A stretch of 62,343 nucleotides of DNA, filler included, from Collodictyon triciliatum (taxonomy: Eukaryota): assembly GCA_043381765.1 (NCBI GenBank). It is 9 parts of 9 records of this genome, joined end to end, with 100 filler letters (N's around TTAATTAATTAA, not from the genome) between each part and the next. Parts side by side here need not be neighbours in the genome. Positions count along the whole stretch, not along the records: positions 37,639 to 45,067 come from JBHJMP010003906.1; 8 more parts are not named here. The stretch is one strand, 5' to 3'. Position numbers and translations under genes: made by a program. Below are positions 41,659 to 42,751 of the stretch, piece after piece (position 1 is the first letter of the stretch; the number at the start of each line of letters is the position of its first letter). The notes beneath the pieces were generated by a model. That model did not search any database, was not told the DNA's origin, and was given only the letters and a program-made list of their open reading frames with translations.

Positions 41659-42751
41659 ATGGAGCAGACGCTTATCCACGCAGAAAGCCCATACACATTC
41701 ACCTTCGACGGCAACGGACGCGGCAAAGTGGCTGTTCTCTACGACGGAGCCGGACTGGCCCGCCTGGGACTGGAGCAGGCCGGGCTGAGCTGCATAGGCT
41801 TCGAGACCTGCCCGATTCTGCACCGGCTCAGCTGCATGGTCGGCTCGGGGAACTGCGTCCTTGTGACAGACATGCAGCAGGCAAGCCGTCATACTGCTGT
41901 CATGTTGCTGTCATGTCGCTGTCATGTCACTGTCATGTTGCAACGAGTAAGTTGTGTCTGCTGCTAACCACGAGCGACAACGACAGGTGCCGCTGGACTC
42001 ATTCGACGCCGTGTGGATATCCGTGCCAGGTGTTGGGCGGTCATCGGCCCGGACGCAATGCGGGCCGGCCAAGCGCAAGCGCGAGCAGCTGCAGAAGGGG
42101 CTGTTTCGGAGAATCCGGGACGAGCCCAGTCCGAACCATGACTTCAACTTCAAGCGGCGAAAGGACGAGACAGAAGCAGAAGCAGACGCAGAAGCAGAGA
42201 CTGAGACCGAGGTGGGGCCGGACGCCGAGGACAACGACGGGGAGAGCGACGCGGCGCAGGTGGAGCGGCTGCTGGCGTGGAGCCTCGGGCGGGGCAACGC
42301 GGTGGTGTGGGTCAGCTGCGTCAGCGTGCAGCGGGCCGTGGGCAACGAGTGGGGGCGGCTGTACAACGCGACTCAGTTCCTGGCCGAGCCGCGGCAGAAC
42401 CGCAACCTGGTGATTGGGGGCCGCTACCCGCCCCCGCCCGTGGTCCGCCCGTACGCAAAGCACCTGCCGGGCGTCTGCCCCTGCATCACCGCCACTGAGT
42501 ACAAGGGCTCCGCCCGCGATGCCCGCCGCGCCTCGCGCTTCTACGGCCGCCGCCTGACCCTGGCCGAGTGCGCCTTCCACCAGGGCTTTGCCCTCCCGGT
42601 CTCGTGGCTGCCCCATCCCCGCCCCTTCACCCCGGGCGCCTGGCGCCACCAGCTCTACCGCGCCCTCGGCAACTCCATCCCGGTCTTTATGGCCCGCGCC
42701 TTTGCCGACGCCTACGCCTACGCCCACGCCCGCCGCCTCCCGCCGCCCCAA
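41659..42751 (+). CDS. C5 cytosine methyltransferase-fold protein with non-canonical catalytic motifs (two exons; 3' end in a gap)
   Basis: Motif I VAVLYDGAGL and GLEQAG; motif II GFE; motif IV region DAVWISVPG; motif VI region WVSCV; YNATQF..PRQNRNL (VII/VIII); motif IX RRLTLAECAFHQGF; motif X YRALGNSIP. The intron ends at 41986. Confidence 0.8.

Follow-up and report, generated by a model that had tools for sequence, protein, structure and literature searches.

DNMT3L of mammals and DRM3 of Arabidopsis are catalytically inactive paralogues of DNA methyltransferases (DNMTs) that act as cofactors and are important regulators. To our knowledge, the known dead methyltransferase regulators of this kind all derive from the eukaryote's own DNMTs. 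The RNA m5C enzymes of the NSUN/RsmB type and the m5U enzymes of the TrmA/RlmD type use a motif VI cysteine as the nucleophile and need further catalytic residues. Prokaryote-derived methyltransferases also occur in eukaryotes, and one of them, the N4CMT of bdelloids, is reportedly active. The prokaryote-derived methyltransferase of the katablepharid mitochondrial restriction-modification system is likewise reported as active (PMC8099122). In the present study, we analysed a methylase-like gene at 41659–42751 (+ strand) of a 62,343-nucleotide stretch of the Collodictyon triciliatum assembly GCA_043381765.1, which consists of nine parts joined end to end and is called the window below. The gene is read as two exons and is a homologue of C5 DNA methyltransferases of about 235 amino acids (aa). 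It most likely encodes a non-enzymatic DNA-binding protein or is a decaying relic, rather than a new enzyme. The reading that we favour, giving it about an even chance, is that of a domesticated, catalytically dead nuclear pseudoenzyme that binds DNA and S-adenosylmethionine (SAM).

Motifs, catalytic residues and reading frames

The two exons were translated apart (P0001 for exon 1, 96 aa, and P0002 for exon 2, 255 aa). With exon 2 as the query, 153 of 1780 candidate proteins matched at E ≤ 0.01, the top one having an E of 3.4e-59 at about 55% identity. The homologues are 38–59% identical and about 235 aa long, and 116 of the 120 listed carry PF00145. The family alignment was made from 114 of these 120 sequences, with lengths of 225–310 aa, six rows being dropped for length. 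The features of the gene, compared with this alignment, are as follows:

41659..41880, + strand: exon 1 as far as it aligns to the N-terminal part of the family; motifs I–III, preceded by an extension of 22 aa
41737..41754, + strand: motif I, LYDGAG, the SAM-binding loop; family LFDGAG, F to Y being the sole change
41797..41805, + strand: motif II, GFE, Glu kept as in the family alignment
41881..41986, + strand: predicted intron region; canonical GT-AG option at 41947–41986, 40 nt, with GTAAGT, a branch-like CTAAC and CAG
41987..42751, + strand: exon 2, motifs IV–X, continuing into an N run
42014..42031, + strand: motif IV, WISVPG, against WASPPC in the family; Gly (42029–42031) in place of the catalytic Cys
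42059..42268, + strand: insert of about 60 aa in the catalytic loop, between RTQ and LLxWSL; in 0/114 family members
42071–42082, + strand: KRKR, within the insert
42152–42163, + strand: KRRK, within the insert
42164–42250, + strand: acidic run with a CAGAAG repeat, within the insert
42308..42322, + strand: motif VI, WVSCV; family WVENV; Glu replaced by Ser and Asn by Cys (Cys111, codon 42317–42319)
42395..42409, + strand: motif VIII, QNRNL; family QNRNR; second Arg replaced by Leu
42470..42589, + strand: the block most conserved in the family alignment, target-recognition region and motif IX (GVCPCITATEYKGSARDARRASRFYGRRLTLAECAFHQGF)
42548–42589, + strand: motif IX, RRLTLAECAFHQGF, in exon 2
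42665..42682, + strand: motif X, LGNSIP; family IGNGVP
42752..43245, no strand: N run over the 3' end and the stop codon, as seen in the sequence

The family consensus reads LFDGAGLARLGLEQAG, WASPPCQ, LWVENV, QNRNRxIGG, the block CPCITATEYKGC..D.RRASRFYGRRLT..ECA.HQGF, and IGNGVPVYMA, and the methylase-like gene has YDGAG, WISVPGV, VWVSCV, QNRNL and LGNSIP at the same motifs. The motif IV Cys and the motif VI Glu are present in all 114 family members and are Gly and Ser in the gene. The motif VI Asn, found in 111/114 members with Cys in the other three, is Cys. The first Arg of QNRNR (114/114) is kept, and the second (113/114) is Leu. The gene therefore has none of the defining catalytic features of C5 methyltransferases, namely the motif IV Pro-Cys, the motif VI Glu-Asn-Val and the motif VIII QxRxR. 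Meanwhile, the SAM-binding motifs I (FxGxG), II (acidic) and X (GN) are present as YDGAG, GFE and GNSIP, and the D, G and G of motif I are each matched in 111/114 family members. The Asp of motif III is ambiguous owing to a one-residue shift in the alignment. The first-pass annotation of this locus had placed motifs I, II, IV, VI, VIII, IX and X, the Cys codon and the insert with its KRKR/KRRK and acidic parts exactly where we find them, and had recognised the replacement of PC, ENV and QxRxR.

The Pfam scan was performed separately for the two exons. Exon 2 matched PF00145 with 19.6 bits (E 6.6e-4), under the gathering cut-off of 22, and exon 1 gave no match, whereas canonical family members score 50–60 bits, over the cut-off. 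No Pfam family besides PF00145, RNA methyltransferases included, was found at E ≤ 1 for the exons. Since the gene lacks the catalytic features and fails the threshold of PF00145, on its sequence it is filed as a degenerate derivative and not classed as a methyltransferase.

The AlphaFold2 model of exon 2 alone had an overall pLDDT of 79.5. The 10-residue block means were 75–98, mostly above 88, in residues 90–250, and 41–59 in residues 21–80, which correspond to the insert and are predicted to be disordered. When this model, in which the N-terminal half is absent, was compared with known structures by Foldseek, all listed matches were C5 DNA/tRNA methyltransferases (DNMT3A/B/C, M.HaeIII, DNMT2, M.MpeI and DRM), with DNMT3A–DNMT3L complexes at the top. 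The best match, 6brr_A, is weak (probability 0.99, E 2.5e-3, TMq 0.42), and 0/233 matches reached E ≤ 0.001. The sequence matches of exon 2 in the PDB (DNA ligase 1 and CEF1; E 0.03–0.12) were rejected as low-complexity matches to the acidic/basic insert only.

Methyl transfer by such a protein would be very unlikely because the Cys, Glu and Arg are gone and the predicted disordered insert splits the catalytic loop. The first-pass annotation had also offered an enzyme with a relocated nucleophile, in which Cys111 of motif VI would attack the base as in NSUN/RsmB or TrmA/RlmD and act on a new substrate. We regard this as highly improbable. A Cys does stand in motif VI, and the SAM-binding motifs are kept, but ECV also occurs in three of the 114 members, which keep PPC, the Glu and QNRNR, and the Cys is therefore a tolerated variant of the Asn. 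In addition, the three other eukaryotic homologues described below have T, S or G at the Cys111 position, the proton-donor Glu and the Arg have been lost with no acidic residue in their place, and motif IV is devoid of a second Cys or Asp such as NSUN-type enzymes use. The Pfam result and the modelled disorder within the catalytic loop also argue against it.

The start-codon frame runs from 41659 to a stop at 41965–41967, and a second + frame is open from 41954 up to the N run at 42752, exon 2 being read from 41987. With the predicted GT-AG intron removed, the two frames are joined in phase. The frame had previously been described as open, which is true of exon 2, but it is not continuous and needs this predicted intron. 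Alternative in-frame intron starts lie at 41881 (GCAAGC) and 41899 (GTCATG), with the same end at 41986. As the 22 residues coded by 41881–41946 have no counterpart in the family alignment, the longer predicted introns would agree best with it. The intron region also holds an 11-nt repeat (×4.3) at 41895–41941. A second intron inside the insert was considered and rejected by eye: the GT...AG pairs checked shift the frame or remove a 48-nt GC-rich piece with no branch site.

Exon 2 contains 0 in-frame stops in 255 codons, versus 2–7 in the five other frames, and an open frame of this kind was obtained in 0.7% of composition-preserving shuffles; exon 1 has no in-frame stop either. The codon periodicity of the core is strong, with GC1/2/3 of 0.71/0.56/0.94, and the insert has a GC3 of 0.77.

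A comparison with metagenome contigs, taken from four runs on freshwater, lake or sediment samples, gave matches with 0 differences over the PG codons (41986–42136, 41930–42080 and 41815–42039), QNRNL (42347–42539) and the 5' flank (41411–41561), and a further piece at 41558–41816 (4 differences, 6 gap letters) connects this flank to the gene start. All exact pieces lie inside 41411–42539, and the DNA contigs 41815–42039 and 41930–42080 include the intron sequence. Sequencing error, which the first-pass annotation had named as a possible cause of the substitutions, is thereby excluded at the PG and QNRNL sites; no listed metagenome piece lies on the SCV codons. No piece was seen in the AT-rich flank 39500–41400 either, but the runs were picked by the gene itself, so neither blank carries weight.

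Phage relatives and other eukaryotic copies

The closest described relatives of the methylase-like gene are small orphan enzymes of phages. The canonical member P0004 aligns over 98% of its length, at 61% identity, with the protein annotated as DNA-cytosine methyltransferase in Rhizobium phage RHph_N17. In the IMG/VR scan, relatives were encoded at 15/18 pattern matches, and in a scan of one genome for each of 185,579 prokaryotic species, 4/111 pattern matches were confirmed as relatives, two of the four being identical to viral contigs. Both were pattern scans and not exhaustive. In PHROGs, family members belong to phrog_116, DNA methyltransferase. We conclude that this family of C5 methyltransferases of about 235 aa is carried mainly by phages, and the trees place the methylase-like gene inside it. 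An intron-bearing eukaryotic derivation from a phage family had no place in the first-pass annotation.

Two of the loci drew attention by their surroundings or state. In RHph_N17 (MN988530.1, L026 1062–4717), the methylase gene lies directly 3' of the genes for QueE, QueC, 6-pyruvoyl-tetrahydropterin synthase and GTP cyclohydrolase I (FolE), which form a 7-deazaguanine DNA-modification cluster. The copy in the chromosome of Brevibacillus fortis (L003 5001–5722) has 8 in-frame stops over 240 codons and is a decayed, probably prophage-derived one.

Among 1.84 billion representatives, searched exhaustively, 67 matched at E ≤ 0.001, the best at 61% identity. The motif IV pattern was present in 35 of the 66 new representatives checked, with PPC in all 35, and the other 31 include short fragments and degenerate variants. 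The JGI metagenome contigs gave 6 loci with an identity of at most 58%. Across these contigs, the 1.84 billion representatives and a set of 5.8 billion clusters, no orthologue with more than 61% identity was found. The nearest ESM Atlas cluster is eukaryote-labelled and has PF00145 in 19% of its members (score 0.93), which we treat as a lead only. Two Logan contigs (P0003 and P0007) are canonical in PPC and ENV, are the rows closest to the eukaryotic trio described next, and have K/E-rich terminal extensions. These extensions look eukaryotic- or giant-virus-like, and the two could be active eukaryotic or viral versions.

Three matches were eukaryotic by source name, one from Diphylleia rotans (P0132) and two from Palpitomonas bilix (P0129 and P0152). 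P0132 is the transcriptome-derived D. rotans protein EP00002_P032382/3 of 907 aa, in which the domain is C-terminal to a 640-aa extension. Its motifs read WISPPI, WIETG, QNRNR and GTGVP, and it matches the exon 1 region 41725–41847 at 61% (tblastn). The Palpitomonas proteins (A0A7S3GAT6, A0A7S3DKX9 and A0A7S3D0P3) are uncharacterised. P0129, with the cluster members P0189 and P0190, and P0152 have WVESV or WIDGA as motif VI. P0129 and P0189 carry MMETSP transcript ids, and P0152 comes from a UniRef entry only. The available Palpitomonas sequences begin just before motif VI, and motifs I–IV are not seen in them. One of P0190, P0129 and P0152 has an RGG-rich N-terminus before motifs VI–X, while the remaining two are extended at the C-terminus by long K/E-rich or unrelated stretches.

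None of the four eukaryotic sequences keeps the Asn of ENV, which has become a different residue in each (C, T, S and G), and the motif IV Cys is lost in the methylase-like gene (G) and in D. rotans (I). These two proteins are 49% identical and share the change of WAS to WIS. Meanwhile, D. rotans and the Palpitomonas proteins have in common an insertion before QNRNR, the change of HQG to RMG and that of GNG to G(T/S)G, whereas the methylase-like gene has none of the three. D. rotans and Palpitomonas keep QNRNR, and D. rotans keeps the motif VI Glu, but the methylase-like gene has lost both. The conserved block at 42470–42589 is common to the methylase-like gene and its homologues in D. rotans and Palpitomonas.

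In the free trees, the second of which was built without the motif columns, the trio stood together (SH-aLRT 91–92), with the methylase-like gene elsewhere or adjoining. The tree in which the four eukaryotic sequences were held together was 16.3 log-likelihood units above the quick free tree, with a p-AU of 0.71. A single eukaryotic clade is not rejected, and all four sequences are long branches.

Retention, decay and genomic setting

According to the favoured reading, a small phage-type orphan C5 DNA-cytosine methyltransferase would have entered the nuclear genome of a freshwater diphyllatean flagellate (CRuMs), where it would have gained an intron and, in the former catalytic loop, a disordered insert with basic and acidic parts. 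The KRKR and KRRK clusters of this insert look like nuclear localisation signals (NLSs). Having lost the Cys that acts as nucleophile, the Glu that protonates and the Arg that contacts the base, the protein would no longer methylate, and the methyltransferase fold would be kept. Binding of SAM or S-adenosylhomocysteine is plausible because motifs I, II and X are kept, and such a ligand is probably still bound. DNA would be bound through the conserved C-terminal recognition block: the VIII–IX block should house target recognition in these small enzymes, and DNA recognition is suggested as the retained function because this block is the best conserved and is kept in every eukaryotic derivative. 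The protein could then have a role comparable to that of DNMT3L and DRM3, either binding DNA of a particular sequence or state or serving other chromatin factors as an adaptor. On this reading, the gene would also be expressed and under selection. The DNMT3L-like proposal of the first-pass annotation has come out as the best supported, as the scaffold is kept, replacements favour the catalytic positions and the other eukaryotic copies are degenerate as well.

The balance between retention and decay was examined at the 70 columns that are conserved in at least 95% of the family. The methylase-like gene keeps 59 of them and deviates at 11. The deviations fall on 3/4 core catalytic residues (the Cys, the Glu and the two Arg, as chosen from M.HhaI biochemistry) versus 8/66 other columns (p = 0.011 in a one-sided Fisher test); for a broader set of motif residues, the values are 4/7 versus 7/63 (p = 0.0096). 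The codons AGC (family Glu), TGC (Asn) and GTG (Pro) are 2–3 base changes away from any codon for the family residue, which suggests that substitutions have been tolerated there for a long time while the scaffold was preserved.

The same gene may be a non-functional relic, an alternative that we consider possible but less probable. A phage or virus methyltransferase gene would have entered the protist, been inactivated and now be decaying, and what looks like an intron would be an indel or microsatellite that shifts the frame and has a GT and an AG beside it by chance. The loss of all key catalytic residues agrees with this, and so does the failure to find an orthologue among the representatives, clusters and JGI contigs; the Brevibacillus copy, with its eight stops, shows that stranded copies do decay. 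In spite of this, most invariant columns are kept and catalytic residues are replaced more often than others (p about 0.01), no stop has arisen in exon 1 or in the 255 codons of exon 2, and the frame shift is bridged exactly by the consensus GTAAGT/CTAAC/CAG. The in-frame insert with its NLS-like clusters retains coding periodicity, and degenerate relatives are present in the transcriptomes of two other protists.

A number of observations weigh against domestication, part of them being those that a relic would leave. The 11 deviations make the gene the most deviant row of the alignment (family mean 1.03, 95th percentile 5, maximum 9), its end branch of 0.74–1.07 is about twice the median of 0.44–0.46, and the enrichment statistic is modest. 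The frame is broken at 41947–41986, beside the 11-nt repeat, unless the predicted intron is spliced out, and the 40-nt intron option is shorter than the 90–230-nt introns of the PACRG gene in the window. Three microsatellites lie within the reading frame or the intron, a pattern as expected under relaxed constraint, and the 3' end with the stop codon is hidden by the N run. The GC3 of 0.88–0.94, as compared with 0.34–0.43 for other window genes and 0.63–0.67 for PACRG, fits a recent arrival better than a long domestication; such a high value in an AT-rich genome suggests a residence too short for amelioration. Selection rather than decay, as the first-pass annotation had proposed, is at most suggested by the enrichment, and no orthologue close enough for dN/dS was found among the representatives, clusters and JGI contigs.

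The host and the other features of the window were determined from the following genes and tracts:

18348–20141: flagellar PACRG gene of about six exons, with AT-rich GT-AG introns of 90–230 nt
32177–33970, + strand: Roc-COR open reading frame (ORF)
34053–35732, + strand: protein kinase ORF
41460..41565, + strand: purine-rich low-complexity tract, possible promoter or 5' untranslated region (TRF rows 41469–41562)

The whole window has about 35% GC, is AT-rich between genes and has a eukaryotic look. The PACRG exon 19081–19431 is identical at 110/117 positions (94%) to a D. rotans EukProt protein, the next-best matches being at 77–78%, and the other PACRG exons are 67–92% identical to D. rotans, the first exon at 67%. 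Judged by this 94% identity, the host is a diphyllatean (CRuMs), close to but different from the sequenced D. rotans strain.

The methylase-like gene itself lies in a GC-rich island, with a GC content of 0.59–0.74 versus 0.26–0.47 in the flanks. A GC-rich gene that is foreign to its AT-rich flanks could be an assembly or amplification chimera, or it could come from another eukaryote (prey or co-biont) or a eukaryotic virus. We consider this unlikely. It would account for the GC jump, for a GC3 of 0.94 that differs from that of the genes nearby and for the N run on the right. The published diphyllatean draft genomes include single-cell assemblies made by multiple displacement amplification, for which chimeras and co-biont DNA are a stated problem. 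A foreign origin would also agree with the nearest ESM Atlas cluster being eukaryotic, with Streptophyta as the sole recorded phylum (1 member), again a lead only. On the other hand, the sequence is continuous with no N from 37639 to 42751 and its GC content climbs gradually from 41200, a second GC-rich island with an upstream purine tract lies 4 kb away in window coordinates, and the D. rotans transcript encodes a family relative, which indicates that the family is at home in this lineage.

The second island is an ORF at 46892–47576 with a GC content of 0.65–0.73, which gave no Pfam match; its start resembles a signal peptide, and a GT donor follows at 47577. It is preceded by a (GAAAAA)n tract at 46636–46810, in a layout that matches the methylase-like gene. 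This ORF may belong to the TMEM132-like gene at 47740–52644 as its first exon, and since it stands beside a native-looking gene, the GC-rich islands may be native to the genome.

Around the methylase-like gene, no terminal direct or inverted repeats that could serve as transposon or viral borders were found, only microsatellites, and the flanking ORFs had no Pfam match. The AT-rich upstream flank contains the long microsatellites (AATCA)n and (AAT)n at 40277–40378 and 38500–38640. Elsewhere in the window, the Roc-COR, protein kinase and LRR ORFs follow one another at 32177–37050 (+ strand) in a ROCO-type arrangement, the Roc-COR part giving 1 match at 24% identity in the 5.8-billion-cluster search. 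Other ORFs are of the LRR, Tim17-family and TMEM132-like (1634 aa) kinds. Paired 44-N runs, 12 bases apart, recur every ~7.53 kb (7436–7535, 14967–15066, 22489–22588, 30016–30115, 37539–37638, 45068–45167, 52589–52688 and 60111–60210) and look like a systematic mask or scaffolding pattern, not ordinary gaps. Larger N runs are found at 578–1072, 10937–11319, 17098–17988, 28808–29226 and 42752–43245.

Comparison with described systems

If the methylase-like gene is a pseudoenzyme, it is a dead enzyme of phage descent in CRuMs, a deep branch of the eukaryotes on which hardly any work has been done, and it has degenerate relatives in another diphyllatean and in a cryptist. Its interest lies in several protist copies of one phage family having apparently lost catalysis, independently or jointly, and remained expressed. 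We tentatively suggest, as a wider idea that is less probable than the favoured reading of this gene, that protists acquired a phage methylase scaffold, in one early event or in several, and retained it in the nucleus as a DNA-binding reader without catalysis. The proteins of diphyllateans and Palpitomonas would then be expressed versions of it, Cys-less or truncated, in which the half responsible for recognition is preserved. If this is true, a family of chromatin proteins not described so far has arisen in eukaryotes from a viral source. If the genes are maintained, a viral enzyme scaffold has been reused for binding, not catalysis, and offers an entry to the chromatin biology of CRuMs; should the gene prove a relic, it would be one more stranded horizontal transfer of the ordinary kind. 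In full-text literature searches, no publication on Diphyllatea or Palpitomonas members of this family was found, and nothing comparable stood among the papers listed for inactive cytosine methyltransferases, protists and horizontal gene transfer.

The phage orphan C5 methyltransferases (RHph_N17 EVC02_064, QIG73285.1, and those of 15 IMG/VR contigs) are the nearest described enzymes, with 48–59% identity over motifs IV–X. They share with the methylase-like gene motif I, the block resembling a target-recognition domain, and motifs IX and X, in the same order and spacing apart from the insert. The phage enzymes are about 235 aa long, have no introns and are invariant in PPC, ENV and QNRNR, whereas the methylase-like gene has PG, SCV and QNRNL, the 60-aa insert, the 22-aa N-terminal extension, a predicted intron and a eukaryotic host.

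The katablepharid system and the bdelloid N4CMT resemble the methylase-like gene in that a DNA methyltransferase gene of bacterial or phage type resides in a eukaryote; they are reported to be active, whereas this gene is devoid of the catalytic residues. The RNA m5C and m5U enzymes also have a Cys in the motif VI region, but no homology signal connects them with the gene, which has none of their further required catalytic residues. By sequence, it does not belong to these enzymes, and its closest relatives are all DNA enzymes.

DNMT3L and DRM3 have in common with the methylase-like gene that catalytic residues have been lost from a C5-methyltransferase fold, which the gene product is predicted to retain. 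They show no sequence relationship to it beyond the fold, and an active partner is not known for the gene. The loss of catalytic residues from an active DNMT lineage, which characterises the DNMT3L/DRM3 type, is found here as well. Meanwhile, DNMT3L has lost the SAM-binding motifs, whereas the methylase-like gene keeps them.

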